Origin: Pseudomonadota bacterium
GTDB lineage: Bacteria; Desulfobacterota; Desulfobacteria; Desulfobacterales; RPRI01
Assembly: GCA_043825875.1 (NCBI GenBank)
Contig: JBDRRF010000103.1
Span: forward strand, 48,150-112,149
Length of the DNA: 64,000 nt
Reading direction: 5' to 3'
Each line of letters starts with the position of its first letter. Position 1 is the first letter of the stretch. The notes below the pieces were generated by a model, which was not told where the DNA came from, did no database searches, and worked only from the letters and a program-made list of their open reading frames with translations. A program made the position numbers and the translations under genes. Of the stretch, positions 2,233-50,454 are shown one piece after another.

Positions 2233-3261
2233 TTATATTTTTATATTAAAGGCTTCTTGCCACGACTGATCGGCACAATAAATCCGATAAACCATTTCCA
2301 TAACCTTCAGGGCATCTGAGCTGTTGCCGTTATCGACACTTTTATTCTGAATGATGACATCTGCAAATTCATTAATCTCATCCCGCCACGAGTTGTCTTC
2401 TAAATACAAATTGGTTATTTCGTGAAAAGAACCTTTATCAGATCCATTATTCCTCGGAACGATTTTTAATTTTTCCTCGCCATAACTTTTCGAGCCGGAT
2501 AAAATCCCAGTCAACTCAATCAAGGCCTCCCGCAACGTTATCTCCAATCTGAATTTATGTTGCCACTGCGTCGCCGTTGAATGGATCATGGCCACACAAC
2601 CATTATTACTTCTCATGATCGCATAGGCATTGTCTTCCACATCATGCCGCCAATAATCGTTGGAAACAAAACTCTTGATCTCTTCGAAATCCCCGGCAAA
2701 GTAGCGTATCATATCCAGCATATGAATGCCCTGGTCAAGCAGGATACCGCCGCCGGCATATTTTCTTTCGGAACGCCAACCGGAATCGAAGGGAATGATG
2801 CTGCTTTTACCATAAATTCCCCGAATATTGATAATCTCTCCATATTGCTTTGAATCGATAATCTTTTTTGCTTCTGCCACAGAGGCATGGTACCTGTGAT
2901 TAAAACCATATTTAAGTTTCAATCCCGCGTTTTTAACCTCTACATTGATTACGTCTTTGATATCCTGGACACTGCGCCCCGGCGGTTTTTCACAAAAGAC
3001 ATGCAAGCCCTTCTCCAAACCGTCGATGGTGGCTTCTGCAGCAAGATAATTGGGCAGGCTCACGAAGAGGACATCAAGATTCTGTTCAAAAAGTTTGTGG
3101 TATTTATCAAAACAAGACACTCCATCCGGTAGAACTCCATCACCTGCAAAACTCACATCACTCACGGCAACCGTGGTTAAATATGGATTTGCGTCAATGA
3201 AGGCCTTTCGCCTCTTGCCAACCACACCGTAACCGGCTATTCCTACCTTTAATTTTTCCAT
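2233..3261 (-). CDS. Gfo/Idh/MocA family NAD(P)-dependent oxidoreductase
   Basis: 342-aa ORF with N-terminal Rossmann motif KVGIAGYGVVGKRR and the EKP motif (VFCEKPPG) of the family. Confidence 0.85.
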   Translation of the reverse strand: MEKLKVGIAGYGVVGKRRKAFIDANPYLTTVAVSDVSFAGDGVLPDGVSCFDKYHKLFEQNLDVLFVSLPNYLAAEATIDGLEKGLHVFCEKPPGRSVQDIKDVINVEVKNAGLKLKYGFNHRYHASVAEAKKIIDSKQYGEIINIRGIYGKSSIIPFDSGWRSERKYAGGGILLDQGIHMLDMIRYFAGDFEEIKSFVSNDYWRHDVEDNAYAIMRSNNGCVAMIHSTATQWQHKFRLEITLREALIELTGILSGSKSYGEEKLKIVPRNNGSDKGSFHEITNLYLEDNSWRDEINEFADVIIQNKSVDNGNSSDALKVMEMVYRIYCADQSWQEAFNIKI

Positions 3262-3265
3262 TTTT

Positions 3266-4249
3266 TTAATTTTTCTGCGCTATGACTCTCATGTGCGAGC
3301 TGAAATTATGTCTACCTATCCAGGACTGGAGATCTTTCTTAGCCTGAGCTGAGCCGTATTTGGAGACCGTGCTGAAAAAACGGCCGGGGTCAAGCGATTC
3401 CTGACGATAACCACTCTCAACGATATCCCAATCCAACTGTCCCGGTGTTGAGACTTCGATCAAGGTAAATCCCATTTTTTCAAGCATCAGGCGAATGGAT
3501 TGGGTATTGAAAAAATTGAGGTGATGGGGCGGCATCACGCTTTTTGATCTTTCCCATAACAGTTGAATGTCAAATCCTAATCCATTCAATGTGGTCAGAT
3601 ACAAATAACCGCCCACATTGAGAAACTGCGAGACTTTCCTGACAAAGGCGGAAGGATCGTGGAGATGTTCGAATAACTCAAAGGCCGTCAACAAATCGAA
3701 TTTATGACAATTAGGATCGATATTTTCCATTGTTGATTCTATGACGGCTAAACCTCTGTCTCTGCAAATTTTTGCCATATCAATCGATGGCTCTATCGCT
3801 ATAATATTTGAATCAGGCCAAATTTTTTTCAATTCCTCCGGAAAGATGCCGAAGCCTGCGCCAATATCACCAATGATTCCTGCTTGTAATTGAGGAAATT
3901 TCTCAGTGATGTATTGCGCCCGTGGCTTGAAGATTTTTTCCCGGCGGGCCTCGGCCATCGGGAGGAAGAATTCCTCAACCCAGAATTTTGTGGATAAAGA
4001 ATCAGTGTAAATCTGCATTAAGTTTTCGTACGTCGGCCTTGGATTGACAAAGAGAGTATCACATTTTGAGCACTGGACGTAATGAAATCCCGATTTGTCA
4101 AATTGCGCCACATTGTGATCGCACCCGCAGGCAGGGCAGCAAATGGTCTGAAATGTTGATTTATCCCGAAAGACAACCTCAGCGTCGATTTCTACCAATT
4201 TGAGATATCGATTAAAGACATCCCTTTTTCTTATTTCATCTTCTTTCAT
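3266..4249 (-). CDS. Class I SAM-dependent methyltransferase with N-terminal Cys4 zinc ribbon
   Basis: 327-aa ORF. CPACGC...CSKCDT zinc-ribbon pair, then SAM motif I GDIGAGFGIF and FELFEHL motif. Confidence 0.8.
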   Translation of the reverse strand: MKEDEIRKRDVFNRYLKLVEIDAEVVFRDKSTFQTICCPACGCDHNVAQFDKSGFHYVQCSKCDTLFVNPRPTYENLMQIYTDSLSTKFWVEEFFLPMAEARREKIFKPRAQYITEKFPQLQAGIIGDIGAGFGIFPEELKKIWPDSNIIAIEPSIDMAKICRDRGLAVIESTMENIDPNCHKFDLLTAFELFEHLHDPSAFVRKVSQFLNVGGYLYLTTLNGLGFDIQLLWERSKSVMPPHHLNFFNTQSIRLMLEKMGFTLIEVSTPGQLDWDIVESGYRQESLDPGRFFSTVSKYGSAQAKKDLQSWIGRHNFSSHMRVIAQKN

Positions 4250-4256
4250 TCTTGCT

Positions 4257-5084
4257 CTATACCTTTAGGTATTTTGCAACAAGAGGATCTCTTTTCAGTT
4301 GCTCTTCTACAAATGTAATATCTCCAGGAACATCAACCCCGTATGATTTGAATTTGGTCTTAACCATTTTAATTCTTCTGCCATGTTCCAGGAGTCTGTT
4401 CATATCAACAGATTCGATTATTTCTAATGGCGTCGGTGATAAATTGATGTATTCTAAAAGTAGGTTTTTTTCGAAAAGAATGATGCCGAGCTGCTTCCAC
4501 ATAGGTAAAACACCACTATAATTTCGTTTTGACGGTATAGGTTCTCTGGAAAAATACAAAACAAAATCATTCAAATCCAAAACGACCTTGATGATATTGT
4601 AGTTGTTGAATTCTTCTTCCGTTTCAATTTTGTTGATCAGGTTTGTAATCTTTAATGTCGGATCATTGATCACCGGGTTAATAAGATCGTTAATCATGCC
4701 CGGCATCAGCATGGGCTCATCGCCCTGAATCATTGCGACATAGTCAACCGCAACGTTCTCTTTCTGCTCAATATTAACGATGGCCTCTGCCGCCCGATCC
4801 GAGGCGCGCTGGTGCGAATCGGCCGTCATGACCGCCTTGCCGCCAATAAAGTTTATATAGTTAAATATTTCCTCATCACAAGTGGCCACCCACACATCGT
4901 CAAGGTGGGAGCACATTTTTGCGCGAAAATAAACATGACCAATCATAGGCATACCAAGGATAGGGGCCATAGGCTTATTGGGAAAACGGGATGCTGCTAA
5001 GCGTGCTGGTATAATAGCTGTAATATTCATAACACTTCTTCGTTTATGTTTCTGAGCCAATATAAGAATCTGACCCATTGCCAC
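4257..5084 (-). CDS. KdsB-like cytidylyltransferase (CMP-ulosonic acid synthetase family)
   Basis: ORF track gives 275 aa from GTG at 5084. The probable start is ATG at 5030 (MNITAIIPARLAASRFPNKPM). An IQGDEPML motif as in CMP-Kdo synthetases is present. Confidence 0.8.
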   Translation of the reverse strand: MAMGQILILAQKHKRRSVMNITAIIPARLAASRFPNKPMAPILGMPMIGHVYFRAKMCSHLDDVWVATCDEEIFNYINFIGGKAVMTADSHQRASDRAAEAIVNIEQKENVAVDYVAMIQGDEPMLMPGMINDLINPVINDPTLKITNLINKIETEEEFNNYNIIKVVLDLNDFVLYFSREPIPSKRNYSGVLPMWKQLGIILFEKNLLLEYINLSPTPLEIIESVDMNRLLEHGRRIKMVKTKFKSYGVDVPGDITFVEEQLKRDPLVAKYLKV

Positions 5085-5367
5085 TGCAGTTTAGTTGGCC
5101 GGTTTTAATCGATATATCCATATTTCCCTTGCTGTGACAATTACTTGACCTCTACAAGGGAGAAGACCTACAAAATTTTGTCTCATACCAATTAGTTTTC
5201 AAACACTAAATAATATTTCAACTGATTTATAATAATAACTGGAAGATAAGCATCATAATAGTTTAATATGTGAAAGCGTATTGGTATCATGTTGTTGAAG
5301 GGGAAATCATATGTGCCTTTTTGCATACCACGAAGTCAAAAAGTTACACAAAATATCCAAAAAAAAT

Positions 5368-5976
5368 TTATGGAAACTTAAAATAATGTTTAGAAAAATT
5401 TATTAATTTTCTACTGCCAATCACTCTGGCTGGATTACTTGTAACAATTGAATATGGAGGGAAAACACCTGAAACAAATGAGCCTGCAGCTATAATCGAA
5501 CCATAACCAATTTTTGTGCCGGTTAGTATAATGCAGTTCGCCCCAATCCAAACATCACCCTCTATAACTATACTTGCTTCCTCTTTATCTTCACTAAATA
5601 CCTTCTTTGCAAGATGACCTTGGTGGATGAAGGGTGTAGTTGAATCAGAATAGTCATGGTTTGAAGCTCTTATGAAAACCCCGCTCGCTATGTGCACGTC
5701 GGCCCCTATTATTATGCCAAAGCTATCATTAGGATCAAGAATAGAGTTACGTCCAATCGAAAACGAGTCACCAATTTTCAGTTTAGCATCATTGTAGATA
5801 AAAGTATTTGGGGAAATATGCGGATTCTTGCCGAGATTACCGCTTAATTTCATTCTGAAATAGGATTCTCTTAATTGTCGGCCAATTCTCGTTTCAGGGT
5901 AAAAGATTACGAATACTTCAATCAGCCCAACTATTTCATCCTTTATAGATCTTAGAATACGTCTAATCATCATCAA
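5368..5976 (-). CDS. Left-handed beta-helix (hexapeptide repeat) acyl/acetyltransferase
   Basis: 202-aa ORF with hexapeptide repeats (IGDSFSIGRNSIL, IGADVHIASGVFI, VWIGANCIILTGTKIGYGSIIAAGS). Its start overlaps the stop of the upstream rSAM gene. Confidence 0.8.
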   Translation of the reverse strand: MMMIRRILRSIKDEIVGLIEVFVIFYPETRIGRQLRESYFRMKLSGNLGKNPHISPNTFIYNDAKLKIGDSFSIGRNSILDPNDSFGIIIGADVHIASGVFIRASNHDYSDSTTPFIHQGHLAKKVFSEDKEEASIVIEGDVWIGANCIILTGTKIGYGSIIAAGSFVSGVFPPYSIVTSNPARVIGSRKLINFSKHYFKFP

Positions 5977-7585
5977 TGACCACCATGTCTTTAATGTTTC
6001 GCAATTGTTCTGATATGTCAGACGAATGACTAAAGCAGCTTAGATTATCTTCTCTGGTGATCTTGTCAATTATATGCTGATAGTAAGATATTTGTTCCCA
6101 AGAAAATGATCTGCTTCTGAGATAAATTAGATACCAAAGCCCAAGATCCGAATCAACATATAGACAATTATTGATTTTATCATGCATATATAGTTTCATT
6201 CTTGATGCTTCATCACTTGACATCGTCTCATGAATCCATTTAAATCCTTCACCTTCAAGTCCATATTTTCCCCTCTGCAAATGAACAGGTGAATTATGGA
6301 GATAATAAAATTCCTTGAGCGAATAATAATCGAGACCGGATCGATTTATGAAGTTTATCGTGTTATTAATTGTATTTTCTGTTTCCATTGGAAATCCTAC
6401 TATAAACGATGCAAAAGTAGTTATTCCGTGCTTTTTTATGGACTCAATGCCCTTTTCATAGTTGCCAATATTGGCTTTTTTGTTCATCCGCATAAGGATA
6501 TCATTATCGCCCGATTCTAATCCAAGGTATACTCCATCACATCCAGAATCCGCCATTTCAGCAGCAATCTCGTCGGTGATAAACTGTGCTCTAAGGAAAG
6601 CATACCATTTAAAATTATGATTATTTAGCCTTTCGAGCAATGTTGAGAAAAATCTTCTTGAAGCATTCAACGTGTCATCTATGAAAACCAAATTTTTTAT
6701 ACCAGCGTCCTCTAAAGTAATAAGTGTTTTTTCGATAAAATCATTTTCTGAGCACTGAAATTGACTAGCCATCGAAGGGTAACTACAAAAAGCACACTTA
6801 AAAGGACACCCTATAGAAACACGTAATTGTATGATATTATTATGGAAAATAGAAATTGACCTTCTAAATACTTCGGGATCAAACCAGGGATTTTGAGCGA
6901 CATCATGGCATCTGTTATTATGAAAGACACCTTGGTCATCCAAGTAAACAAGATTCTTGATACTCCCGAACTCTGATTGCTTATTTATTAAGGTATTATA
7001 AATTTGTACAATTGCGGTATCGGCATCATTTCCATGCAGGATGAATCTAATACCATATTTTTTCATGGATTTTTCAAAAGACGCGAATCCCTTCATCCGG
7101 TTCTGGTTATGAACAAAAGCCCCTCCGAGAATAAATATTACATATGGAAAGTCTTTTAATATTTGTTTTGTTATTCTCTTAATTTCAGACCATTGTAAAA
7201 TGAAAGTGGTCGATATGCCTACTATCTGGATATCAGTGTCCGATAAGAGATTCTTTAGCACATCATATTCAGCATCAAAATCGTTTATTATGTTACATTC
7301 CACGCCCTCCATAAGCAGATGCTGGATCGATAATATCCCATTCAGTGACGGCATATTCCAGATGGAAAAAAATTTACGCCTTTCAGAATAGGATGCCTCG
7401 CTGAAATATTTTCCAAAGTAAATACGGTTGAGTACATCCAAATGAGTTCTAAAGCCGTTTTCATAATATACCATCCTAAGCTGGACAAGATGCCTGTATA
7501 GCTCAATTCGATTTATATCGAGATCTTTATAACCCTCTTGTACGTTCTCAGAAGATGAAATTATTATAAATGGTGATTTTTTCAT
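5963..7585 (-). CDS. B12-binding-domain radical SAM enzyme (class B)
   Basis: 540-aa ORF. N-terminal B12-binding-like Rossmann segment (VGISTT...ILGGAFV) and CxxxCxxC cluster motif CPFKCAFCSYP. The ATG overlaps the ACP stop (ATGA). Confidence 0.85.
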   Translation of the reverse strand: MKKSPFIIISSSENVQEGYKDLDINRIELYRHLVQLRMVYYENGFRTHLDVLNRIYFGKYFSEASYSERRKFFSIWNMPSLNGILSIQHLLMEGVECNIINDFDAEYDVLKNLLSDTDIQIVGISTTFILQWSEIKRITKQILKDFPYVIFILGGAFVHNQNRMKGFASFEKSMKKYGIRFILHGNDADTAIVQIYNTLINKQSEFGSIKNLVYLDDQGVFHNNRCHDVAQNPWFDPEVFRRSISIFHNNIIQLRVSIGCPFKCAFCSYPSMASQFQCSENDFIEKTLITLEDAGIKNLVFIDDTLNASRRFFSTLLERLNNHNFKWYAFLRAQFITDEIAAEMADSGCDGVYLGLESGDNDILMRMNKKANIGNYEKGIESIKKHGITTFASFIVGFPMETENTINNTINFINRSGLDYYSLKEFYYLHNSPVHLQRGKYGLEGEGFKWIHETMSSDEASRMKLYMHDKINNCLYVDSDLGLWYLIYLRSRSFSWEQISYYQHIIDKITREDNLSCFSHSSDISEQLRNIKDMVVIDDD

Positions 7586-7827
7586 TTGGGGTTAATTTTT
7601 TTCATCAGATAATCTACAAACTGCCCAACATTCTGGATTTCCATTACATCCTCAGTTTTGAATGCAACATTAAACTTTCGCTCAATTGCAAGAAGCAACT
7701 GAATATGCATGAGTGAATCCCATTCTTCAATATCGTTAGCTGTCATCTCATCGAATATTTCTATGGAGTTATCATCGAATACTTCTCTAAATATTGATTG
7801 TAAATCACGCTTGACACTGTCCCGCAT
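7582..7827 (-). CDS. Acyl carrier protein
   Basis: 81-aa acidic ORF with phosphopantetheine attachment motif EEWDSLMHIQLL (DSL). Confidence 0.75.
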   Translation of the reverse strand: MRDSVKRDLQSIFREVFDDNSIEIFDEMTANDIEEWDSLMHIQLLLAIERKFNVAFKTEDVMEIQNVGQFVDYLMKKINPK

Positions 7828-9724
7828 AGTGGTTCTCCCTTGTATTATTATTTTTTTTCATATCTTCTATAACATGTTTCTTATAAACAATATCCCCCAT
7901 TTTGATTGAATAAAAAATGCCACCCCCTGATAACTTGCTAAGTTCAGATGGAATATCTTTTAACGGCTTGAATCCAAGGGAGGGTAGAAATTCATTGACA
8001 ACTTTGTTTTTCTCTGTTGGAATAAACTCTCCTACGATGCAAGATATTTCATTCCATGTTTTTACTTTTTCAGTGATTTTATTGAACATAGCATGCTCAA
8101 CACCCTTGTTAAAGGCTCTGCAACTCAAGACCCAAGTATCGATAAATGCCATGTTCTTTAACTTCCTTAAAATTAAGCAAGTTATAATTCCAAAATTGCT
8201 AAATTTGTCCTTGAGTTCACCTAAAAGAAGAATAAATTGTGATGCATCATTCATTATTTTTTGAATATCACCTTTGCTATATCTTTTTGTTCTCAGATTG
8301 AATTGGTTTGTTTTGTTAATAAGTTGGACAAATCTTGCCAAGCTCTGTTCAGAAGGCTCATTGATCCTGATCTCCATTTCAAGTGATTTTAGAAAAGAAT
8401 TATAATCTGTGTGTTCCTTCCTGATCTCTTCACGCTGGTAGTTTGTTACATATGTTTCAGTCCGCTCAATATCCTCCTTTGTAAGTTGAATCCAATCAAA
8501 ATAAGCACCCCTATCAAGGATTTTTGTATAATACGCTGGTTCATCATCCACAGGGACAACAGTCACTTCTGGCAGGTATCTCTTTACAAGCTCTCTTTCT
8601 GCTGGATTGTCATCAAAGAAAACTAAAGAATCAATCCCAATATTTAACTGCTTGGCGATGCTTCTTATGTTACTGACCTTGTCATCCCAGTTGGCCACAA
8701 AACAACAAATATCATCGAGTTTGAGAATCATCTGTTCATGTTTGAGAAAAGGAATCTTAGCCATATCCTCGTTATTTTTACTGCAAACCGCGAGCATTAC
8801 ACCCCTTTCTCTGAGCTTTTTTATATATTTCTGAAATGAGAGATATGCCTCACCAACCGCATTATTAGGGTCTAAATTTATTCCCTCAATACCATCATCA
8901 CCTATAACACCGCCCCATAGGGTGTTATCCAAATCTAAAATAAGGCATTTGTTGACCTTGCCTGACGCTGAAGCAACAAGCGATGAAAACAAATTGGCCA
9001 AATGAGGAATCGCATCGAAACTAAAACCTTGCTTACTAAGAAAGTAATTCTTATCATCAAACCATTTGTCCTTACCATAGAGAGCTGAATGATAATCCAT
9101 ATCTATCAGATTAATATGCATAGGTTTATTTGCTATAAGTTGGTAGTTGAAAAGCTTGATGCAAGATGTCTGAGTGAAGATATAATTAGATTCAAGATTA
9201 CCTATCGGCATTTCAGCGGGTATTGCATACAGCGTCTGAAATAAAGTTGATATTTTTGATCCTTTAAGTCTATCCCAAAGTCGAATCCAATCGGATATTT
9301 TATTTTCCGACCACACATCAACACTTTTTTTTGAGGAAAATAAAGGAGGATATTCCTTTATGTCTCGATAATCCGTCAAAATAAAAAGTATATCAGGATC
9401 AAATTTATATAAACCTGAATCGGGATTTAATATTTCATATTCAGTGTTATTGAAGATCCCCTCGTAAAATTCTGGCTGTATTGCTTTATTCAAGAGAAAT
9501 AACTTAAATACATATTGAAAATGCTGAGTAGAATACGAGGCCAAAATGGCGATCTTTTTATAAACCAACTTGTTTCTGTGTTTTGAGATATACAAATCTT
9601 CAATCTTTGAGAATTTCTTATAAAGTGTTAGGAGATCAGAGATATCTCTATTTGAGAAAAAATCTCTTTTATCAAATTCTCTTTCAAAATAAGCCATTCT
9701 TTCATTTACATCATTCATGTTCAT
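7805..9724 (-). CDS. FkbH-like HAD-IIIC phosphatase/acyl-loading enzyme
   Basis: ORF track gives 650 aa from 9757. The probable start is ATG at 9724, overlapping the MaoC stop as ATGA. HAD motif LILDLDNTLWGG, CSKNNE, FFDDNP, and a C-terminal GNAT-like IDTWVLSCRAFNKGVE segment typical of FkbH-domain proteins. Confidence 0.8.
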   Translation of the reverse strand: MNMNDVNERMAYFEREFDKRDFFSNRDISDLLTLYKKFSKIEDLYISKHRNKLVYKKIAILASYSTQHFQYVFKLFLLNKAIQPEFYEGIFNNTEYEILNPDSGLYKFDPDILFILTDYRDIKEYPPLFSSKKSVDVWSENKISDWIRLWDRLKGSKISTLFQTLYAIPAEMPIGNLESNYIFTQTSCIKLFNYQLIANKPMHINLIDMDYHSALYGKDKWFDDKNYFLSKQGFSFDAIPHLANLFSSLVASASGKVNKCLILDLDNTLWGGVIGDDGIEGINLDPNNAVGEAYLSFQKYIKKLRERGVMLAVCSKNNEDMAKIPFLKHEQMILKLDDICCFVANWDDKVSNIRSIAKQLNIGIDSLVFFDDNPAERELVKRYLPEVTVVPVDDEPAYYTKILDRGAYFDWIQLTKEDIERTETYVTNYQREEIRKEHTDYNSFLKSLEMEIRINEPSEQSLARFVQLINKTNQFNLRTKRYSKGDIQKIMNDASQFILLLGELKDKFSNFGIITCLILRKLKNMAFIDTWVLSCRAFNKGVEHAMFNKITEKVKTWNEISCIVGEFIPTEKNKVVNEFLPSLGFKPLKDIPSELSKLSGGGIFYSIKMGDIVYKKHVIEDMKKNNNTRENHYAGQCQA

Positions 9725-10143
9725 ATTTTTATCTCTACCATCTCTTTTACTTGGCATTTCCCCTGTGCGATTGTTACTTTTTTCCCATTAGTAAAAGTCA
9801 ACTTCAGTTCGGCAACTTTTAGTGCAATCGAGATATTTTCCATGATCCCTAGCAACTGGATTTTATCACCTGGATGAAAGGGATGCCTATAAAGGATGTT
9901 TTGCGAAATAAGCATTACTTTATATTTTCTCATCTCAACGCCAACCAATGAAGATATCATTAAACCGAGAAGGTTGCCATAACATACTATATTTCTGAAT
10001 CCATATAATTTTGAATAGTTAGGGTCGATATGAATTGGATTATCGTCTAAAGATATTTCTCTAAACTTATTCATAATATCTATTGTTATTACCATATTCC
10101 AATGAAACTCTTGTCCTATTTTAAGCATCTCAATCATATACAA
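9721..10143 (-). CDS. MaoC-like hotdog-fold dehydratase/hydratase
   Basis: 140-aa ORF with DDNPIHIDPNYSK, matching the MaoC dehydratase signature. Confidence 0.75.
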   Translation of the reverse strand: MYMIEMLKIGQEFHWNMVITIDIMNKFREISLDDNPIHIDPNYSKLYGFRNIVCYGNLLGLMISSLVGVEMRKYKVMLISQNILYRHPFHPGDKIQLLGIMENISIALKVAELKLTFTNGKKVTIAQGKCQVKEMVEIKI

Positions 10144-10223
10144 TTATTCTCATATCCATATAAATAACTACTAATACGCGCCAATAATTATGTGAGGATA
10201 GCTGCTAAACCCATCCTACAACT

Positions 10224-10565
10224 ACATCAAGTATTCGAATATCGATGCTATAAGCAATAAATCGGTATCCTTCTTCTCTTCGCTGTTGAAGCTGCATTAC
10301 CTCCGGCTCAACAATATGGATGCACGTAGCTTTACCCGATGCACCCCCAACTGATTCTTATAGTGGCCATTACCTTTTGCATAAAGCGAATGCGATTAAT
10401 AATCCGTGATGCCTAATGATCTGGAGAGCTCGTAAGAACCGACAATAAACCCGTCGACACTATCAACGACAGACTTTCAGCAAGATTATCAACAGGCTTG
10501 GATATGTTCAATCTGAACACAGTGGCTTCATGACTTAGCCAATCCTTATATGCTTAGAATGAAAT
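10224..10565 (-). pseudogene. Decayed copy of the 3-prime third of the HpcH/HpaI aldolase gene
   Basis: Manual alignment shows 10224-10565 colinear with 11747-12081 inside the intact aldolase gene. Roughly three quarters of positions match. The last ~60 nt (cttggatatgttcaatctg...ggcttcatgact.agccaatccttatatgctt) are near identical. Indels are present and no long minus-strand ORF remains. Confidence 0.75.
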
Positions 10566-10696
10566 CAACAAGTCCAACAGGTTCTCTAACAGCTTTTTCA
10601 TACAATCATTCTTACCATATAGATTCATCTGCCGTTCATCCTTTTCCAAGTCCGCCGACGTATGACACGGTCAAAACATCAGCTACTTTCTTAGCA

Positions 10697-11656
10697 CTAG
10701 AAATTCCCTATTTTTTCATCACACCCACTGGCCCAACTATCTATGGTAAATAGATTAGAGATTTTTCTAAATATTATTTCAATTCTTCCTTTACCCTTAA
10801 AATTACGAAGAACAAATTTTTCATTATTTTTCAAATATTGTTTAATATGTACATGCATCTCCTTGGACAATATACCAATTTTAGAAGATAAATTTAAAAG
10901 GACTTCAGCTAAATCGAAATATTCATATGCAAGATATACTGTAACCGCTCGTAATATCTTATCTTCATTAACATTCTTATCAGAGCAGATATTTTCTGGG
11001 GTTTTGAAATATAATGCATCTCCAAAAATAATTTGGCCTTTTTGTCCTGGACCATAATGATGTGTATTGTTTCTTCTCCAATAATACCTTTTTAAATCGA
11101 TAAGTTCGAAACCACGACTTGTTATGAATTGATCGATTTCGGGAAACAGGGGTTGATCCTTGTAGATGGGCAAAAATTCAACCTCAACCTCCAGGCCGAT
11201 CACATTTTCAAGCGTTTTTACAGCACCTTCCAAAATTGATAATTCATATCCTTGTGTATCAATTTTGATGAAATCAACTTCAAGCAAGCCGGCTTTACGT
11301 AATTGGCTATCCATTGTATCAGTTTTCATTGTTATGGTATTTACTATGTCATGCCTTTCAGCCTCTGGATATTTGCTAAGTAATTCAAAATTTGGCATAA
11401 AAATTGACGAGACTTGTTGTTTTCGGCAGAGATTGAATTTTAGGTCTTTGGGAAAATCGGATAAAGCACTGTTTAATACTATATAATTATCGCCTACACT
11501 TTGTTTCAACCTATCATATTCCCTGGGATCTGGCTCAAAGAGCACCGCTTTAAAATTAGAACCAGCTATCTTTGGCCATCTTGAATGGAGTCCGCCACTG
11601 GCTCCTACATCAATAACATAAATAGTTTTGTTTTTTAAAATGCCTTTATTACTCAT
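10697..11656 (-). CDS. FkbM-family SAM-dependent methyltransferase
   Basis: 319-aa ORF with VIDVGASGG SAM motif and IKIDTQGYE, typical of the FkbM family. Confidence 0.8.
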   Translation of the reverse strand: MSNKGILKNKTIYVIDVGASGGLHSRWPKIAGSNFKAVLFEPDPREYDRLKQSVGDNYIVLNSALSDFPKDLKFNLCRKQQVSSIFMPNFELLSKYPEAERHDIVNTITMKTDTMDSQLRKAGLLEVDFIKIDTQGYELSILEGAVKTLENVIGLEVEVEFLPIYKDQPLFPEIDQFITSRGFELIDLKRYYWRRNNTHHYGPGQKGQIIFGDALYFKTPENICSDKNVNEDKILRAVTVYLAYEYFDLAEVLLNLSSKIGILSKEMHVHIKQYLKNNEKFVLRNFKGKGRIEIIFRKISNLFTIDSWASGCDEKIGNF

Positions 11657-11710: not shown

Positions 11711-12481
11711 CTATGAATGAATCGACATTATTGCAGTTCTACAGGTAACATCCAGCATTCGAATATCGACGCTGTAAGCGATAAACTGGTAATTTTCCTT
11801 GATGCGCTGTTGAAGCTGAGTTACGTCCGGCTCAATAATATGAATGCCTGTAGCTTTACCCGAAGTGAGTCCCACGCTTTTTATCGTGGCCATTGTCTTT
11901 TGCATAAGCGGATGCTCAAAATCACCGGGGACGCCCAACGATCCTGAAAGATCGTAAGGTCCCACAATAAAACCATCTACGCCCTCAACAGACAGGATTG
12001 CGACAAGATTTTCTACAGCTTGGATATGTTCAATCTGCACGATTACAATGGCTTCATGACTAAGCCAATCCTTATATGCTTCGAAGGTGTTACCGTAACC
12101 CTGTGCCCGTGCCAGCCCCACCCCTCTTTTTCCTTGTGGCGGGTAACGAACAGCTGCAACGGCCCGCTCTGCCTCGGCGGCAGAATTCACCATCGGCACG
12201 ATTATACCATATGCGCCCGCATCCATAACTCGTTTGATTTGAACAGAATCATTGGTCGAAAGACGGACTAAAGGTACAGCTCCACACAGATCGATTACCC
12301 TGATCAATTCCTCGGCCTCCCGAATTGTGATAACACTGTGCTCCAAATCGACGGCCAGCCAATCAAATCCTGCCTTCGCCATGATTTCCGCAATCGCCGG
12401 ATGTGCAAGCGTGATCCAGGAACCAATACTCAATCCATTATTATGCAGTTTCTCTTTAAGTGTAGCAATTCTCATTTTCAA
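11711..12481 (-). CDS. HpcH/HpaI family class II (pyruvate-dependent) aldolase
   Basis: 256-aa ORF. WLAVDLEHS, IIVPMVNSAAEAE, QIEHIQAVENL and DGFIVGPYDLSGSLG match 2,4-dihydroxyhept-2-enedioate / 2-keto-3-deoxy-sugar-acid aldolases. Confidence 0.85.
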   Translation of the reverse strand: MKMRIATLKEKLHNNGLSIGSWITLAHPAIAEIMAKAGFDWLAVDLEHSVITIREAEELIRVIDLCGAVPLVRLSTNDSVQIKRVMDAGAYGIIVPMVNSAAEAERAVAAVRYPPQGKRGVGLARAQGYGNTFEAYKDWLSHEAIVIVQIEHIQAVENLVAILSVEGVDGFIVGPYDLSGSLGVPGDFEHPLMQKTMATIKSVGLTSGKATGIHIIEPDVTQLQQRIKENYQFIAYSVDIRMLDVTCRTAIMSIHS

Positions 12482-12556: not shown

Positions 12557-14371
12557 CTAATTATATTGACAAGGAATTAACGCCCTGAGCAAAATATTCC
12601 AGCCCAAAACGCTTTCCAGTCTGGGGATAGGTTTGGGGTTGAGATTTTTATAAATCACGAGCCCGTTTTCCTTATAAAGCAGTTTATTATTTTTGTCACT
12701 TTCCACTTTGATCATATATCCCTGCCATGGGGGGAGGTTCGGATCAATGTAAACCACTTCCTTAGTCTGAATGAAATAATATTCAACGCCTTCCGGGTGA
12801 TATCCCAGGTACCATGCCTTTTGCCTGTTTGTTACATATGCCTGCATGGCAGCATCAATCCTATAAGCAACCGAAGCGTCTTTAGGTATATATTCCCTCA
12901 TTTTTTCTAAGACATGCTCATATTTAGCGTTAACAGGCGAGGATCTAATAAACACAATTTTCTTATTTGTAATACCAGCCCATGGATAGTTATTTGAAAA
13001 CCATAAAGTTGTGGATATTATGCCTGCAGCCATTAGAATTAACATCAAATATTTATTATTATCGGCGACTGCTTTTTTGTCCGAGATTGTTCCCGGACTA
13101 AACATGCAGGTAAGTACCATAAAAGCGCTTAAATACACCGGAACAACCATGTTTGCATTTCTATGGGAAGCAATATCATAACTTCGGAATAAACCCATTA
13201 CGGCACCAACAGCAGCAAATACAAGCAAGCCAATGAGAGGCCAATTCCAGCACTTATCTCTTTTTATTCCTAAAAGAGGAACAAAGCCGACTGTCAATAG
13301 CAGGAGAAAGATATATACTGCATGGTATAGAGATGCTCGGATAAATGATGTGAAATCAAGCTTCAAAAAAAGTTGGATCATAGTACCGGTAGGTTGGCTC
13401 GACAGATCCCAAATACCTCGCAGGCTTTCCCTGATAATGGCCTGATCCCACAACATAACCAAAAGACCGATCACTAAAGTTATAATGCCCTGCTTGGGAG
13501 CTCTAAAGAAAAGAGCTATTATTACACCAAGCGCAATTACGGAATATGTATAAGGCATATTGATAATTGCTAGTAGGAACACAAAAACATAAAACAACAT
13601 CCAGCGTCGTGAAAATAATGAGGCAAATACATAAGGATAAACGGCGTATGATATTAGGTCAAATTGACCGCTCATCAAAATGGATCTTTCCACCCATGGT
13701 AATAGACAAAATCCCATTGCCGCCATAAGCGCCATTATTTTTGACCCCTTGAGTGCGCGCACCGCTAAATATATTCCAAATGATCCGAAAGTAATAACCA
13801 CTATGACAACGGCAAACACATGCATTGGGGGATTAGGATAAAACCAATAGAGGGGAGTTAGTAAAAGGCTTGGCAGTATTTGCGGCACCGTAGAAAATGC
13901 CGAAGCGTAAAAGAAAGGATTAGCATGGAAATAGAGAGCGCCGTTATATTTAACCGTATTTTCAGGTCCGATTCCAGCGCATAGATTATGGAGTACCTGA
14001 GCAAAATAGGCCCCGTTCCCATGGTTGTACTCATACAGATAGGGATTCATAAATATATCAATCCCAAACCAACCGATGACCAGTATGATAAACATACCTA
14101 AAATTAATTTATAATTTGATTCAATAAACATTCGCCACGGATGCCGGTTATCAAAGATAAACCGCCACCTCAATAGTACATAGTCCTTACATAAATAGAG
14201 GCTCCAGAAAAGCATAATAAAGGTAGTCGTTGCCCTGATGAATCTTGTTCTGTCTATGGTAATCCGGGGAAGAATTAGAAAAAATAGAATCAGCGAAACA
14301 ATAAGTAGTAAAATTGATTTGTTCAGGATATTTCTTTTTGTCAATATTTTTTGCATACGATCAATGCCCAT
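12557..14371 (-). CDS. Polytopic membrane protein, GT-C-like (DUF2079-like by recollection) with soluble C-terminal domain
   Basis: 604-aa ORF with at least 10 hydrophobic segments, then a ~140-aa hydrophilic C-terminus. The start overlaps the upstream stop (TAATG). The family assignment is from memory only. Confidence 0.55.
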   Translation of the reverse strand: MGIDRMQKILTKRNILNKSILLLIVSLILFFLILPRITIDRTRFIRATTTFIMLFWSLYLCKDYVLLRWRFIFDNRHPWRMFIESNYKLILGMFIILVIGWFGIDIFMNPYLYEYNHGNGAYFAQVLHNLCAGIGPENTVKYNGALYFHANPFFYASAFSTVPQILPSLLLTPLYWFYPNPPMHVFAVVIVVITFGSFGIYLAVRALKGSKIMALMAAMGFCLLPWVERSILMSGQFDLISYAVYPYVFASLFSRRWMLFYVFVFLLAIINMPYTYSVIALGVIIALFFRAPKQGIITLVIGLLVMLWDQAIIRESLRGIWDLSSQPTGTMIQLFLKLDFTSFIRASLYHAVYIFLLLLTVGFVPLLGIKRDKCWNWPLIGLLVFAAVGAVMGLFRSYDIASHRNANMVVPVYLSAFMVLTCMFSPGTISDKKAVADNNKYLMLILMAAGIISTTLWFSNNYPWAGITNKKIVFIRSSPVNAKYEHVLEKMREYIPKDASVAYRIDAAMQAYVTNRQKAWYLGYHPEGVEYYFIQTKEVVYIDPNLPPWQGYMIKVESDKNNKLLYKENGLVIYKNLNPKPIPRLESVLGWNILLRALIPCQYN

Positions 14372-15054: not shown

Positions 15055-16398
15055 TCATTTGATTAAAAAACTTTTTATAAAACCAAAACTATTTCTAATG
15101 GCTGAGCTAAAATCTGCTCTCGTCAAATTGTAAAGTATAATAGACGGACGTAAATAAAATTTTAAAAGTGCCTTACGTTGCCAGTTCACCAGATCCTTTG
15201 GTTCTAAATCATTGACTCTTATAACAGCATTCCCCCATCGTCTATAATCTGCCCAATTTGAAGACAATAAACTCAATCCACCAACTCCAGACTTTGCATA
15301 TTCATAATATTCTGTTCCCGGAAACGGTGTTCCTATATTAATATAGGCTTGTTTACATTTTAATTTTTTAATAAAATTAATTGTGTTTTTAATAGTTTCT
15401 TCCGTTTCTTCAGGCAGACCGAAAATAACAGAGAGCCTTGTTTCTAGACCAACCTCGTCGGCTATTTTATAGGCCTTCTTTATTTGGTCAAGAGTTGTTC
15501 CCTTTTTTGCCGCATCTAAAATATGTTGATTCCCGGACTCTACACCAAAAGATATTCTGTTAAGCCCTGCCTGCTTTAATTTTTTAAGCAAATCAAGCGT
15601 TACCACATTTACGCGGGTATATCCTTCAAATGTAATATTCAGTTTTTCCTTGATTATCGAATCGCAGAGGTTAATTGTCCTTTCATGATTAAGGCCGAGG
15701 GTATCATCTAAAAAGCTGAAGTGCCGGATATTATATTTGTCAATGACCATCTTAAGTTCTTCGATAATTCCAGGGACGCCACGATAACGAACATGGTTTC
15801 CGAAGATTACCTTCTGCGAGCAGAATATACATTTAAAGGGACAGCCCCTCGATGTCATAATCGTCGCCATGGGTTGAATGCCTTTGCCGGGGACGGACCA
15901 TACATACTTTTGATTATCCAGGAGATCCCGATTCGGAAAACTTATGGAATCAAGATCCTTAATCAATGGCTCCTGCGCCATTATCCCTCTGGCCGGAGAT
16001 TTCAAAAATTTATTAAAAGCAACTTCGCCTTCACCTGGAATTACAGTGTCAACAAAGGGGCTGGATATGACGGATTCAGGCACTGCGGAACAATGTGGTC
16101 CACCTGCAACCGTCCAGATATATGCACTATGTTTTTTTACTATTTGGAACAGATCAAAAGCCTGATTAACAAGAGGCGTCGTAAATGTCACACCGATAAT
16201 GTCAGGCTTGAAGGATTTCAAGGTATCTAAGAGATTAGGGTTCAATTCAAGATCAATAATTTTCGTTTCGTGATCGCCCTCAATATTTGCAGCGAGTGAG
16301 GCAAGCCCCAAAGGAGGATATAGAACTCCGATTTTTGCCGCCGGAGAGAAATTTCCATAAACACCGGTAAAGGATGGATTAACCAACAAGATTTTCAT
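15055..16398 (-). CDS. B12-binding-domain radical SAM enzyme (class B)
   Basis: 447-aa ORF with N-terminal B12-binding-like domain (KILLVNP...IIGVTFTT...AGGPH) and cluster motif SRGCPFKCIFCS. Confidence 0.85.
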   Translation of the reverse strand: MKILLVNPSFTGVYGNFSPAAKIGVLYPPLGLASLAANIEGDHETKIIDLELNPNLLDTLKSFKPDIIGVTFTTPLVNQAFDLFQIVKKHSAYIWTVAGGPHCSAVPESVISSPFVDTVIPGEGEVAFNKFLKSPARGIMAQEPLIKDLDSISFPNRDLLDNQKYVWSVPGKGIQPMATIMTSRGCPFKCIFCSQKVIFGNHVRYRGVPGIIEELKMVIDKYNIRHFSFLDDTLGLNHERTINLCDSIIKEKLNITFEGYTRVNVVTLDLLKKLKQAGLNRISFGVESGNQHILDAAKKGTTLDQIKKAYKIADEVGLETRLSVIFGLPEETEETIKNTINFIKKLKCKQAYINIGTPFPGTEYYEYAKSGVGGLSLLSSNWADYRRWGNAVIRVNDLEPKDLVNWQRKALLKFYLRPSIILYNLTRADFSSAIRNSFGFIKSFLIK

Positions 16399-22160: not shown

Positions 22161-23549
22161 CTAACTATGCCGGAAACCCCGAAATGAAGCATCATTCTCC
22201 AAATAGAGTTTACGGGAAGCATCTTCGGTTTTCTTTATTTGCTCCGAGTAATAATTATTAATTAATATAGAATTGGCTTCATATAAATTTTTATGAAACT
22301 CCGTATCGCTCAAGTTTGTAAAGTTGACTGATAGCAAATCGGAGTTCAAGTGTTTGTTTTCATAAAAATCTTCGCAATTTCTTAATAATCCAGTTTTAAT
22401 AGCATGATAGTATAACGGGCACCCAGGATATGGAGTTACTGGCCGAATAGTTCTTAGCTGTGAATGATCACTATATTTTAGTAAAAAATCCACTCCAAGC
22501 TTTAAAGTTTTTTCATCATCGCCTATGTGACCAAAAATAATATTTAATCCGGGACTAATACCTGTGGCAATCGTATTTTCTATTCCAACTGTTATTTGCC
22601 GTGTAGTCAGATTTTTTTTCATTTTTCTCAACACATCCTGGTCCATTGACTCAATCCCGTAATTAATAAAAACGCATCCTGCAGCTTTCATTACTTTTAA
22701 TACTTCGGGAACAGCATAGTTGAGTCTTCCATTGCAGTCCCAATTAATATCCAGATTTGCTTTTATAAAAGCTTCACAAAGTTCAACCGTTCTTTTTTTT
22801 GAACTCATAAGCAATTCATCAGAAAATGCAATATAAGATATTGCATTTTCTTTCTTTAGGATTTGAATTTCCTCAATTATGCTTTCCGCCGAACGAGGTC
22901 TGAATCCCTTATCCATTCTGTAACAGAAATTGCAGTGGAATGTACAACCTCTTCCAGATAATACCGGTATACATCGTTGACTATTTTTAATATTCGGCAT
23001 CCGGAGCAAAGCATAATGATCCATCGGGAATAAATCCCAAGCAGGAAAAGGTATCCCGTTAATATCATCAATCAAAGCTCTGCGGTCAGTTTGAACAAAT
23101 TTGCCGTCATCCAAATAAGCAATGCCGTTTATCGAAGCTAATGATTTTTTACCATCTAATTGTTTTAAGAGTTCTAAAATTGTAACTTCACCTTCACCTA
23201 TAACGACTGCATCGGCTTTTGTTTTTTTTAAAAAATATTCCGGCTCAGGAGCAACCAGATGACCTCCTAAAACATAAAAAGGACGATTCTTCGCAAGATT
23301 TATTGCATCGGATATTTTCAATATTTTTCTATATTGGTAATAGCCGCCACAGGCACTCACGCCAATCACATCAAATTTATTTTGATTAATGTAAGCAAGA
23401 AGATGCGATTCCGGCCAATGGTATACATCCTGATTGTAAATTGTAACATTATGCCCTGCCTTTCTGCATACAGAAGCGAGATAGGCAATACCTTGAGGAA
23501 ACCACGAGATAAAAGAATCGTTATCGTAAACAACAAAAAGAATTTTCAT
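22161..23549 (-). CDS. B12-binding-domain radical SAM enzyme (class B)
   Basis: 462-aa ORF with N-terminal B12-binding-like domain (KILFVVYDND...VIGVSACGG...LGGHL) and cluster motif GRGCTFHCNFCY. Confidence 0.85.
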   Translation of the reverse strand: MKILFVVYDNDSFISWFPQGIAYLASVCRKAGHNVTIYNQDVYHWPESHLLAYINQNKFDVIGVSACGGYYQYRKILKISDAINLAKNRPFYVLGGHLVAPEPEYFLKKTKADAVVIGEGEVTILELLKQLDGKKSLASINGIAYLDDGKFVQTDRRALIDDINGIPFPAWDLFPMDHYALLRMPNIKNSQRCIPVLSGRGCTFHCNFCYRMDKGFRPRSAESIIEEIQILKKENAISYIAFSDELLMSSKKRTVELCEAFIKANLDINWDCNGRLNYAVPEVLKVMKAAGCVFINYGIESMDQDVLRKMKKNLTTRQITVGIENTIATGISPGLNIIFGHIGDDEKTLKLGVDFLLKYSDHSQLRTIRPVTPYPGCPLYYHAIKTGLLRNCEDFYENKHLNSDLLSVNFTNLSDTEFHKNLYEANSILINNYYSEQIKKTEDASRKLYLENDASFRGFRHS

Positions 23550-30117: not shown

Positions 30118-30765
30118 TTACCTTTTTTCAACAATCCTTGCGGGCACACCGACTACCATTACGTTTGCTGGAATATCTTTTATAACGACAGCACCAGCCC
30201 CGATGATTACACCGTCACCAACTTTGATTCCCTGAATAATTGTTGCTGCGGTTCCTATATGGGTCATATCACCAATCTGAACACCTCCTGACAGGACAGC
30301 GCCGGGGGCAATATGTACGTGCGCACCGATAATACAATCGTGATCAACGACCGAACCAGTGTTGATAATGGTATTATTGCTTATTATACAACCTATTTGG
30401 ACGATTGCACCTGCCATGATTTGGACTCCTTCGCCTAATTGCACGCCGCTTATGATCGTCGCTGTGGGATGAATTACAGTTGCAAATGAATACCCATCTT
30501 TTTTAAATTGAAGGTAGATGTTTTTTCGCTTTTCCGTTAATGATACTGAACCGAGTCCATTGACAAGTTCAACAGAATCAGAAGCATAGTTTTTTACCAT
30601 ATTATCGTTTCCAAGGATGAAAGCCCCGGCAATAGACTGACCGGTCAACGACACATCCGAGTGAAGTATTCCGACAATTTCTCGTCGCAAGACGTTGAGC
30701 GAAGAGATCAAGACTTTGGCATGCCCACCAGCACCTATAATAATGACCGGCCGGTTTAAAATCAA
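30118..30765 (-). CDS. PglD/NeuD-type amino-sugar N-acetyltransferase (LegH-like)
   Basis: 215-aa ORF with N-terminal Rossmann-like IIIGAGGHAKV followed by hexapeptide repeats. Confidence 0.85.
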   Translation of the reverse strand: MILNRPVIIIGAGGHAKVLISSLNVLRREIVGILHSDVSLTGQSIAGAFILGNDNMVKNYASDSVELVNGLGSVSLTEKRKNIYLQFKKDGYSFATVIHPTATIISGVQLGEGVQIMAGAIVQIGCIISNNTIINTGSVVDHDCIIGAHVHIAPGAVLSGGVQIGDMTHIGTAATIIQGIKVGDGVIIGAGAVVIKDIPANVMVVGVPARIVEKR

Positions 30766-49045: not shown

Positions 49046-49966
49046 CTACCTCCTTGTGCGATGTTGGTTCACGATAGTACTAAACATTTGTTCAATATCC
49101 CGGTATTCATCTAAAGGCATGGATTGTGCGCAAAGATCATCCGAAGCATCTTTTCCCAGAGCAGCGGCTTTAAAAAGTGTTCCGGGGTGATATGGGCGAA
49201 GGATATAAGATAAATTATCTATAGCACCAATGTATTCGGCTATCGCCTTAATATTTTTTGAATCTGCTGTAAATCCGCCTATAACAGGAATTGAACATAT
49301 AAGTTTGTCGCGTGCCACATCTTTAAGTTTTGAAAAATTTGTAAGAATAATATTATTGTTTTGCCCGGTAAGTCTCTGGTGAATATCCGGAGCAAGTAAT
49401 TTTATGTCAAAATATATCAGATCGATCATGTCAAGCAATGTACTTTCAAAAAGATCCCAGTTAAAAAAACCGCAGGTTTGAATTGCTGTATGAATTTTCT
49501 CTTTTTTCAGTTTTTGTAAAACCTGGCCAAGGTAACGACAGTCCTGTGTAGGTTCACCCCCCGAAAAAGTAACGCCTCCTTTTGAATGTTCAAAGAATCG
49601 TTTATCTTTAAGCAGTATTTGTACAAGTTCTTCCGGTTCATAATATTGCCCTTTGATAGTTAGAGCTTTGCCAGGGCAAACGGATGCACACAATCCGCAA
49701 TTATTGCATGTATCACGGTCAATTTTAACAAAGCCATTTATCATAATAGCATTTTCAGGACATACTGATGAGCAGTCACCGCAAAGTATGCAATTTTGCG
49801 GCTGATGGTACAGTTCGGGTTCAGAGCTTATGCCTTCAGGATTATGACACCAGAGACAGCTTAATGGGCAGCCTTTGAAAAATACTGTACTTCTTATTCC
49901 TGGCCCGTCATCTAAAGCATACCGATGAATGTCGAATATAAGCGGCCGTTGTTTATCAAAGCTCAT
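49046..49966 (-). CDS. Glycyl-radical enzyme activating enzyme (radical SAM, with two auxiliary 4Fe-4S motifs)
   Basis: 306-aa ORF with CPLSCLWCHNPE, the ferredoxin-like motifs CILCGDCSSVCP and CNNCGLCASVCP, and GGEPT. Confidence 0.9.
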   Translation of the reverse strand: MSFDKQRPLIFDIHRYALDDGPGIRSTVFFKGCPLSCLWCHNPEGISSEPELYHQPQNCILCGDCSSVCPENAIMINGFVKIDRDTCNNCGLCASVCPGKALTIKGQYYEPEELVQILLKDKRFFEHSKGGVTFSGGEPTQDCRYLGQVLQKLKKEKIHTAIQTCGFFNWDLFESTLLDMIDLIYFDIKLLAPDIHQRLTGQNNNIILTNFSKLKDVARDKLICSIPVIGGFTADSKNIKAIAEYIGAIDNLSYILRPYHPGTLFKAAALGKDASDDLCAQSMPLDEYRDIEQMFSTIVNQHRTRR

Positions 49967-49970
49967 TGCA

Positions 49971-50432: not shown

Positions 50433-50454
50433 AATATCGGTCTCCCTGTAATAG

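Follow-up and report, generated by a model that had tools for sequence, protein, structure and literature searches.

What might a run of five overlapping genes, in which an FkbH-type enzyme and its acyl carrier protein (ACP) stand beside a radical S-adenosylmethionine (SAM) enzyme and a sugar-type acyltransferase, be doing inside a bacterial glycan locus? The genes lie on a stretch of 64,000 nt, referred to here as the window, from contig JBDRRF010000103.1 (positions 48,150 to 112,149, forward strand) of assembly GCA_043825875.1, a Pseudomonadota bacterium that GTDB places in the Desulfobacterota. Our reading, to which we give a probability of about 0.6, is that this cassette builds a short, tailored acyl group on its dedicated ACP and then places it on a surface sugar. 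The five genes span window positions 5368-10143 and are listed in order of transcription.

9721..10143, minus strand: MaoC-type single hot-dog (R)-hydratase/dehydratase, 135-140 aa (PF01575).
7805..9724, minus strand: long FkbH-type protein, 639 aa (TIGR01686, TIGR01681, PF21211).
7582..7827, minus strand: dedicated ACP, 81 aa (PF00550).
5963..7585, minus strand: predicted cobalamin-type (class B) radical SAM enzyme (rSAM), 540 aa (PF04055).
5368..5973, minus strand: left-handed beta-helix (LbH, hexapeptide) acyltransferase, 201 aa (PF00132).

A first-pass annotation of this DNA had described five consecutive minus-strand open reading frames (ORFs) with overlapping ends. Its coordinates agree exactly with ours, and ORF calls and a reading of the minus strand show overlap at all four junctions. 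ATGA overlaps join MaoC to FkbH (9724-9721) and ACP to rSAM (7585-7582), the FkbH stop codon (TGA, 7807-7805) falls inside the ACP gene (ATG 7827) to give the 23-nt overlap already noted, and the rSAM stop codon (TAG, 5965-5963) lies 8-14 nt into LbH, where at least 8 nt had been proposed. The longest MaoC ORF begins at TTG, and its true start is likely to be ATG 10128 or 10137. For FkbH the longest ORF is 7805-9757, ATG 9724 being the start that agrees with database proteins (639 aa), and for LbH it is 5368-5976, with ATG candidates at 5973 or 5970. The five genes form one operon-like unit. Overlap alone is unremarkable and indicates an operon only, since beyond the cassette 10 of the other 28 junctions in the run of minus-strand genes at 0.6-35 kb overlap as well (14/32 altogether, counted on longest ORFs). 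Promoter and terminator sites were no more frequent in a scan of 4900-10900 than in shuffled sequence, which speaks neither for nor against transcription signals of its own. It is recurrence in other loci, not overlap, that sets the cassette above chance.

The proposed cassette proved to be no chance grouping, for its genes are co-localised elsewhere. Two further lineages keep all five genes in this order: loci L002-4, in which FkbH is 79% identical, and L093, with identities of 46-50%; the overlaps of 23, 4 and 11 nt are kept in L002. Metagenome contigs were scanned with a 27-sequence rSAM alignment and their neighbouring genes annotated. The four-gene core of MaoC, FkbH, ACP and rSAM recurs in 12 or more additional loci, metagenomic or genomic, from several phyla, in at least four gene orders (MaoC-FkbH-ACP-rSAM, MaoC-rSAM-FkbH-ACP, rSAM-MaoC-FkbH and ACP-MaoC-rSAM). 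Each rSAM relative that scores at least 239 bits and has flanking sequence (L010-L020) is adjoined by at least one of MaoC, FkbH and ACP. A further relative at 239 bits (L021) reaches the contig end with none of the three in sight, and relatives weaker than 239 bits have no such neighbours. An rSAM without MaoC was never seen where the flanks allow the check, and among the 65 best FkbH matches at least 18 lie on contigs of the same length as those of top rSAM matches. Searching contigs with the single FkbH protein returned only one distant Verrucomicrobiota fragment (L001), and the rSAM had no tblastn match among PLSDB plasmids. Through changes of gene order the four core genes remain together as a conserved unit; the part of the cassette that is exchanged is the transferase.

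Profile scans bore out all five family assignments. MaoC passes PF01575 marginally (30.5 bits, cut-off 27); its closest solved structures are human 3-hydroxyacyl-thioester dehydratase 2 (HTD2, 3ir3) and PhaJ (R)-enoyl-CoA hydratases, and in 14 homologues linked to cassettes neither the Asp nor the His of its hydratase-2 motif (D-x-N-P-x-H) varies. FkbH matches TIGR01686 at 298 bits (cut-off 146.65), with residues 268-597 covering profile positions 2-320 of 323, and also matches the haloacid dehalogenase (HAD) family HAD-IIIC (TIGR01681, 66.8 bits) and PF21211. It combines FkbH_N with a phosphatase domain of HAD-IIIC type and the C-terminal domain of FkbH proteins, and its residues 55-403 match BF1531 (PDB 3slr) with E = 2e-66; such long FkbH proteins have more than 8000 homologues in the database searched. 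The earlier doubt that the protein might lack the catalytic residues of its family was eased by an alignment of 22 diverse homologues (34-79% identity), in which the HAD residues D264, D266, T268, S315, K349, D371 and D372 and three cysteines that are candidates for the nucleophile, C260, C314 and C535 (S534-C535-R536), are invariant. On this basis we predict that FkbH is a glyceryl-S-ACP synthase using 1,3-bisphosphoglycerate. The ACP matches PP-binding PF00550 at 32.1 bits (cut-off 20.8), has weak matches to ACP families, and always accompanies FkbH in related loci; it contains the motif D37-S38-L39, and Ser38 is the predicted site of phosphopantetheine attachment.

FkbH together with a dedicated ACP is a hallmark of pathways that supply secondary-metabolite building blocks, such as methoxymalonyl-ACP extenders, tetronates and polyketide starters (PMC9057759), and the out-group rSAMs nearest to ours are embedded in nonribosomal peptide synthetase (NRPS) lines. 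A role of this kind, in place of glycan decoration, would call for companions that the window does not provide: it has no ketosynthase (KS), polyketide synthase (PKS), NRPS, FkbI/FkbK-type dehydrogenase or FabH-like gene. FkbK, FkbI, FkbG and tetronate KSIII domains were found in none of the 25 window ORFs scanned from 0.6 to 35 kb, and tblastn of the KSIII from locus L095 against the window gave no match. Every annotated homologous locus, moreover, has glycan genes beside the cassette, for instance for capsule export, flippases, glycosyltransferases, cytidylyltransferases or NeuB. We rejected the readings as a methoxymalonyl, tetronate or PKS pathway for want of the companion genes named above, and a secondary-metabolite function appears extremely improbable.

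The tailoring step that would distinguish the cassette depends on the rSAM. This protein matches PF04055 Radical_SAM at 78 bits, and C260, C264 and C267 of its CxxxCxxC motif are invariant in 27 homologues. The first-pass annotation had named four profiles that the cassette proteins should match; TIGR01686, PF01575 and PF04055 were matched above cut-off, but B12-binding PF02310 was not, at 23 bits against 32.1. Because of this sub-threshold score we turned to structure prediction and Foldseek. The AF2 model (pLDDT 89.8) has as its top matches the cobalamin rSAMs MgmA, TsrM, CysS, TokK and OxsB, together with AprD4; TokK and CysS have been crystallised with pantetheinylated substrates. TIGR04479 (PhpK) is the best family match, at full length and 340 bits, and by its sequence the rSAM is a relative of the PhpK family, not a member. 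We predict that it is a C-methyltransferase acting on an ACP-bound acyl group. A link to phosphonates through the PhpK likeness was considered and rejected: 340 bits falls below the family cut-off of 600, the phosphoenolpyruvate (PEP)-mutase signature motif occurs in no frame of the window, and no phosphonate genes were found there.

AprD4 deserves separate attention. It is a non-methylating diol dehydratase whose equivalent of the B12 domain is not known to bind cobalamin, and, besides being among the top structural matches, it is the best PDB sequence match of the rSAM (6fd2, E = 5e-15). Given that glyceryl-ACP is a 1,2-diol and that the B12-binding score is under cut-off, the rSAM could be a non-methylating enzyme that performs other radical chemistry, such as an AprD4-like 1,2-diol dehydration or a rearrangement, on glyceryl-ACP or on a sugar, leaving an unmethylated C3 acyl group. 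We think this unlikely. The match to the PhpK family is full length at 340 bits whereas that to the AprD4 family is 59 bits, many homologues carry the PF02310 match, and most structural neighbours are cobalamin methylases; MaoC is always present with the rSAM, which would make a second dehydratase redundant. More distant rSAM relatives at about 212-216 bits (about 30% identity) lie between condensation-adenylation-thiolation modules of NRPSs (L023, 9725-11416; L025, 9692-11428; L031, 8812-10467), and one NRPS ORF among the loci of distant relatives itself holds a B12-binding domain. The branch of class B rSAMs that includes the NRPS-embedded enzymes may serve carrier-protein pathways in general.

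The acyltransferase matches PF00132 Hexapep at 47.8 bits. It had been likened to LpxA and LpxD, a comparison that did not survive: LpxD (TIGR01853) scores 30.4 bits against a cut-off of 242.5, and a UDP-GlcNAc acyltransferase structure 24.7 bits. The nearest families and structures are WbbJ, WcaF, Vat, CatB, galactoside O-acetyltransferases and NeuO, the polysialic acid O-acetyltransferase, with scores under all equivalog cut-offs (WbbJ 68.7 vs 243, WcaF-family 59.8 vs 192, Vat 58.8 vs 300). The NeuD/PglD/VioB family (TIGR03570) reaches 39.9 bits against 160.8, over the C-terminal 50 residues only. With acetyl-CoA enzymes as its neighbours in both sequence and structure, and with extra hexapeptide genes loosely near two other cassettes (L005, L006) that have a membrane-bound O-acyltransferase (MBOAT), LbH might be an ordinary acetyl-CoA O-acetyltransferase that shares the operon, the ACP product being used by another enzyme or for another purpose.

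Its distribution makes that quite improbable. Homologues fall steeply from a small, sharply bounded clade (at least 42% identity) to generic acetyltransferases, and five clade members (P0242, P0243, P0246, P0247 and P0248) lie on contigs longer than 5 kb that equal in length (49330, 5690, 8410, 13753 and 59610) contigs with rSAM and/or FkbH matches. LbH keeps its position and 11-nt overlap in L002 and its adjacency in L093, and no other transferase candidate (MBOAT, AAC(3)-like or KSIII) was found in the window by tblastn with single representatives from other loci. By sequence, then, LbH is a cassette-dedicated and cassette-linked subfamily of its own. We predict that it moves the ACP-borne acyl group to a sugar, and we infer its use of acyl-ACP from context only.

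Elsewhere the core is combined with other transferases. In L005, L006/7 and L090 the rSAM-type core is followed by an MBOAT together with an ORF of 34-49 aa and a partner protein of roughly 350 aa; L013 and L014 have an MBOAT and a weakly similar partner, and L017 shows only an MBOAT fragment at the contig edge, with no ACP or partner seen. Two loci for pseudaminic acid (Pse) or a similar sugar have soluble enzymes instead. L094, from an assembly labelled Halobacteriovorax marinus, combines the rSAM-type core with an AAC(3)-like N-acyltransferase and has a DUF4910/DUF2172 aminopeptidase-like gene nearby, and L095 (Coxiellaceae, Pse-like locus) adds a second ACP, a FabH-like KSIII and a GNAT. 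The suggested link to nonulosonic acids gains from this survey: rSAM cassettes with a soluble transferase always lie in NeuB, Pse or legionaminic acid (Leg) loci (window, L002, L093, L094 and L095), and MBOAT cassettes sit in other glycan loci.

Further variants lack the rSAM. FkbH-ACP-MBOAT occurs in L091 (Lachnospiraceae) and on Sinorhizobium meliloti pSymB beside rkpR, SDR-MaoC-FkbH-ACP-MBOAT (SDR, short-chain dehydrogenase/reductase) in L008 (a Nitrospirota genome), MaoC-FkbH-ACP-methyltransferase-SDR-MBOAT in L092 (Vicinamibacterales), and FkbH-ACP-WcbI with a MaoC::SDR fusion in Niveispirillum; on the P0255 contig LbH adjoins a MaoC::SDR fusion. The variants are thus nested, from FkbH-ACP-MBOAT alone, through the addition of MaoC and SDR, separate or fused, to MaoC with rSAM, and the rSAM fills the slot that the SDR holds in other variants.

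The tiny ORF of 34-49 aa lies just after the MBOAT gene (L005, 15034-15138; L006, 15040-15144; L090, 14982-15131; L091, 13238-13360) and precedes the partner of about 350 aa in L005, L006 and L090. The MBOAT partner proteins and a 535-aa protein of L008 had no Pfam match. Within a few kb of the capsule export genes at rkpR, the pSymB locus (L096; CP140955.1, 1048481-1053516) encodes an MBOAT, a 409-aa protein annotated as a 'TonB-dependent receptor', an ACP and an FkbH-like protein that bears the label 'HAD family hydrolase'. FkbH matches occur in 40 Sinorhizobium plasmid records, and S. meliloti, being cultured, offers a tractable model of the plain FkbH-ACP-MBOAT form. An LIC12162-family protein (PF27859, about 600 aa) lies beside FkbH cassettes in four loci and might be the glycosyltransferase for the modified sugar.

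L094, 12697-15948: LIC12162-family protein.
L002, 3306-5096: LIC12162-family protein.
L092, 16581-18362: LIC12162-family protein.
L093, 15052-16231: LIC12162-family protein.

No member of the family occurs in the window; an ORF of 604 aa (12557-14371) was tried as a candidate and rejected, having no BLAST or Pfam similarity to it.

These assignments suggest a route of four steps. FkbH and OzmB are known to convert 1,3-bisphosphoglycerate to a phosphoglyceryl-S-enzyme and then to glyceryl-S-ACP (PMC9057759). In the first step, FkbH of the cassette would likewise form phosphoglyceryl-S-enzyme from 1,3-bisphosphoglycerate, its HAD domain would strip the phosphate, and the glyceryl unit would pass to the phosphopantetheine on Ser38 of the ACP, as the family membership and the catalytic residues checked above suggest. 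In the second, MaoC would handle glyceryl-S-ACP as a 3-hydroxyacyl thioester, with loss of the 3-hydroxyl to give 2-hydroxyacryloyl-ACP and, by tautomerisation, pyruvoyl-S-ACP. The rSAM would then C-methylate the ACP-bound C3 unit one or more times, a single methylation giving 2-oxobutanoyl-ACP; this is the weakest step, and methylation might come ahead of dehydration. Because the rSAM stays with FkbH, ACP and MaoC while the transferase varies, its substrate is most simply the ACP-bound C3 unit. A D-2-hydroxyacid dehydrogenase (657-1568) may afterwards reduce the 2-oxo group. Finally, as context suggests, LbH would take the acyl group off the ACP and join it to a hydroxyl or an amino group of a nonulosonic or ulosonic acid, or of a nucleotide-linked precursor, made in the same locus. 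In the rSAM-less variants, dehydration would be followed by ketoreduction to a lactyl group, since MaoC and SDR recur as pairs and as fusions.

Several points weigh against this route. The rSAM scores below the cut-off of its nearest curated family and below that for B12 binding, and it has a non-methylating enzyme as its best PDB match; the nearest relatives of LbH take acetyl-CoA, not acyl-ACP. No phosphopantetheinyl transferase adjoins the cassette in the window, although L090 has one. The rSAM-type MBOAT loci show no adjacent reductase, for which reason any 2-oxoacyl product would have to reach its acceptor unreduced. We know of no glycan substituent that exactly matches the predicted C-methylated pyruvoyl or glyceroyl group, and acyl product, step order and acceptor are each inferred from sequence.

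On which sugar would the group be placed? The surroundings are one long minus-strand glycan locus that runs from below 0.7 kb to 35.2 kb. The first-pass annotation suggested N5 or N7 of the neighbouring Leg as a possible acceptor, in which case the ACP chemistry would be as proposed here and LbH would N-acylate a 4-amino sugar precursor or a deacetylated Leg. The Leg block, at 23.7-35.2 kb, is 13.5 kb from the cassette and has its own NeuD/PglD-type N-acetyltransferase (30118-30765, a TIGR03570 member at 221 bits) and an acetamidino system with a WbuXYZ amidotransferase. It is true that soluble-transferase cassettes always lie in NeuB/Pse/Leg loci, that the transferases of L094 and L095, beside Pse genes, are of N-acyltransferase types (AAC(3)-like and GNAT), and that N-glyceroyl and N-(di-O-methylglyceroyl) Pse exist (PMC5378307, PMC3068675). 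In the window, however, a Cj1295-like/DUF4910 putative deacylase, an AAC(3)-like gene and a KSIII were looked for and none was found, and the nearest kin of LbH are O-acetyltransferases, including that for polysialic acid. The conserved neighbours of the cassette are not Leg genes but the following trio.

11711-12481, minus strand: HpcH/HpaI aldolase.
3266-4249, minus strand: Methyltransf_23 (class I) methyltransferase.
4257-5084, minus strand: KdsB-like cytidylyltransferase.

This trio accompanies the FkbH cassette in three distant loci, the window, L002 (7010-9539) and L092 (1877-4415), and its proteins are 44-81% identical between the window and the other two. Its enzymes may produce a CMP-activated ulosonic acid by way of a pyruvate aldolase, independently of Leg synthesis. 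We consider N-acylation at N5 or N7 doubtful, though a serious candidate, and regard two alternatives as at least as likely: an ester linkage on Leg, and the acylation of a second ulosonic acid that the aldolase would make.

In the window the trio is joined by an SIS protein (1598-2209), a GFO oxidoreductase (2233-3261) and the D-2-hydroxyacid dehydrogenase named above. The 550-nt 'spacer' upstream of MaoC (10143-10697, minus strand) is the decayed C-terminal half of an HpcH/HpaI aldolase, a paralogue of the intact gene at 11711-12481, with which one stretch of 45 aa shares 71% identity and another of 56 aa shares 46%, in different frames and with stop codons; it suggests a rearrangement at the edge of the cassette. 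Two more B12-binding rSAM genes (15055-16398 and 22161-23549, minus strand), BchE/HpnJ-like and far under the family cut-offs, sit among methyltransferases, flippase-like genes and a glycosyltransferase and bring the total of cobalamin-type rSAMs in the locus to three. Outside the glycan locus, at 49046-52935 on the minus strand, are a glycyl-radical enzyme (PFL-like, 826 aa) and its radical SAM activase, consistent with an anaerobic or facultative lifestyle that would suit oxygen-sensitive rSAMs.

How far does the cassette resemble systems already described? Taken one by one, its components are familiar: loading by FkbH and ACP, dehydration by a hot-dog enzyme, class B rSAM chemistry and LbH transfer. 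With the FkbH/OzmB proteins of methoxymalonyl-ACP and tetronate synthesis it shares the FkbH domain, HAD motifs, conserved Cys, a small dedicated ACP and, presumably, the conversion of 1,3-bisphosphoglycerate to glyceryl-S-ACP (PMC9057759). It differs in size, OzmB having 366 aa and the cassette FkbH about 270 aa more, with an extra N-terminal FkbH_N as in BF1531/3slr. It differs also in company: those systems have FkbI/FkbK, the FkbG O-methyltransferase, a FabH-like tetronate synthase and PKSs, none of which is found with the cassette, whereas MaoC, a cobalamin rSAM and a sugar-type acyltransferase are its partners in a glycan locus. Similar on-carrier logic is seen in the aeruginosin, suomilide and varlaxin synthetases (AerB), where FkbH-loaded glycerate undergoes O-methylation and sulfation while thioester-bound (PMC10143770). 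The DH-then-KR order of the MaoC+SDR and MaoC::SDR-fusion variants also has a counterpart in loading modules. The FkbH-DH-KR (dehydratase, ketoreductase) loading modules of FR901464 and bryostatin make lactyl-ACP; like AerB, they are domains of PKS/NRPS megasynthases for small molecules, whereas the cassette consists of discrete proteins, has an rSAM in place of the reductase and would deliver its product to a glycan acyltransferase.

Among class B enzymes, PhpK, TokK, CysS, TsrM and MgmA share the CxxxCxxC motif with our rSAM, which also has a predicted N-terminal Rossmann-type domain and aligns over its full length to the PhpK family. TokK and CysS act on pantetheinylated substrates; the rSAM is proposed to act on a C3 acyl-ACP in a glycan pathway, a substrate for which the literature searched describes no precedent. 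The commonest form of the cassette elsewhere, with carrier, MBOAT, 34-49 aa ORF and partner of about 350 aa, resembles, by layout only, the Dlt system for D-alanylation, in which an adenylating ligase loads the carrier DltC and the MBOAT DltB works with DltD and the small DltX. In the Dlt layout a carrier-bound acyl group is exported to an extracytoplasmic polymer. The window has a soluble LbH and no MBOAT, and FkbH, in place of an adenylating ligase, would load its carrier with a unit drawn from glycolysis.

Campylobacter jejuni offers a parallel among nonulosonic acids. Its flagellin glycosylation locus, like ours a nonulosonic-acid locus, holds the FkbH-domain gene cj1302 (PMC7099621), and Pse that carries glyceroyl or di-O-methylglyceroyl groups has been described (PMC5378307, PMC3068675); the earlier statement that no ACP-dependent acyl-tailoring route is known for nonulosonic acids was thus too strong, with the limit that those papers give no biochemical characterisation of the cj1302 or glyceroyl-Pse routes. 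L095, with two ACPs, KSIII and GNAT, and L094, with its DUF4910/DUF2172 gene, resemble the C. jejuni arrangement, but the window is without KSIII, GNAT and Cj1295-like genes. The C. jejuni locus also contains Cj1295, but to our knowledge neither MaoC nor a cobalamin rSAM has been reported from it.

In the open-access literature we found no paper that combines FkbH with radical SAM, an absence that is weak evidence; FkbH with polysaccharide gave incidental mentions only, none describing the cassette, and the combination of glyceryl, ACP, MBOAT and polysaccharide gave nothing relevant. Within the limits of that literature, the MaoC-FkbH-ACP-rSAM glycan-acylation core looks undescribed. A broader reading, which we hold tentatively and at somewhat short of even odds, is that the cassette belongs to an undescribed, phylum-spanning glycan-acylation system. 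FkbH would load glycerate on ACP, optional modules (MaoC, then SDR or cobalamin rSAM, with or without methyltransferases) would tailor it, and interchangeable transferases (LbH, AAC(3)-like, GNAT, WcbI, or MBOAT with its partner) would deliver it; the rSAM branch would C-methylate the acyl-ACP.

Acyl groups on nonulosonic acids and other surface sugars set antigenicity, recognition by phages and lectins, and immune evasion, and the genes for non-acetyl groups are largely unknown; a study of Tannerella described the genetics behind N-glyceroyl as 'a major challenge' (PMC5378307). The cassette gives experiments a concrete candidate route by which a glycolytic intermediate would be turned into such groups, and it predicts a new class of cobalamin rSAM substrate, small acyl-ACPs in glycan pathways. 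Experiments may be feasible, as the core is present in two cultured genera, on Sinorhizobium meliloti pSymB (without MaoC and rSAM) and in Niveispirillum, and also in the assembly labelled Halobacteriovorax marinus. With its exchangeable soluble and MBOAT transferases, the cassette lends itself to the question of how a single acyl donor reaches acceptors on either side of the membrane, cytoplasmic or extracytoplasmic. If the broader reading is correct, the cassette would add to nonulosonic acids an acyl decoration new to them, for example a 2-oxo- or 2-hydroxybutanoyl group or a branched homologue, and would provide the first genetic handle on the glycerate-derived acyl groups of pseudaminic and legionaminic acids.

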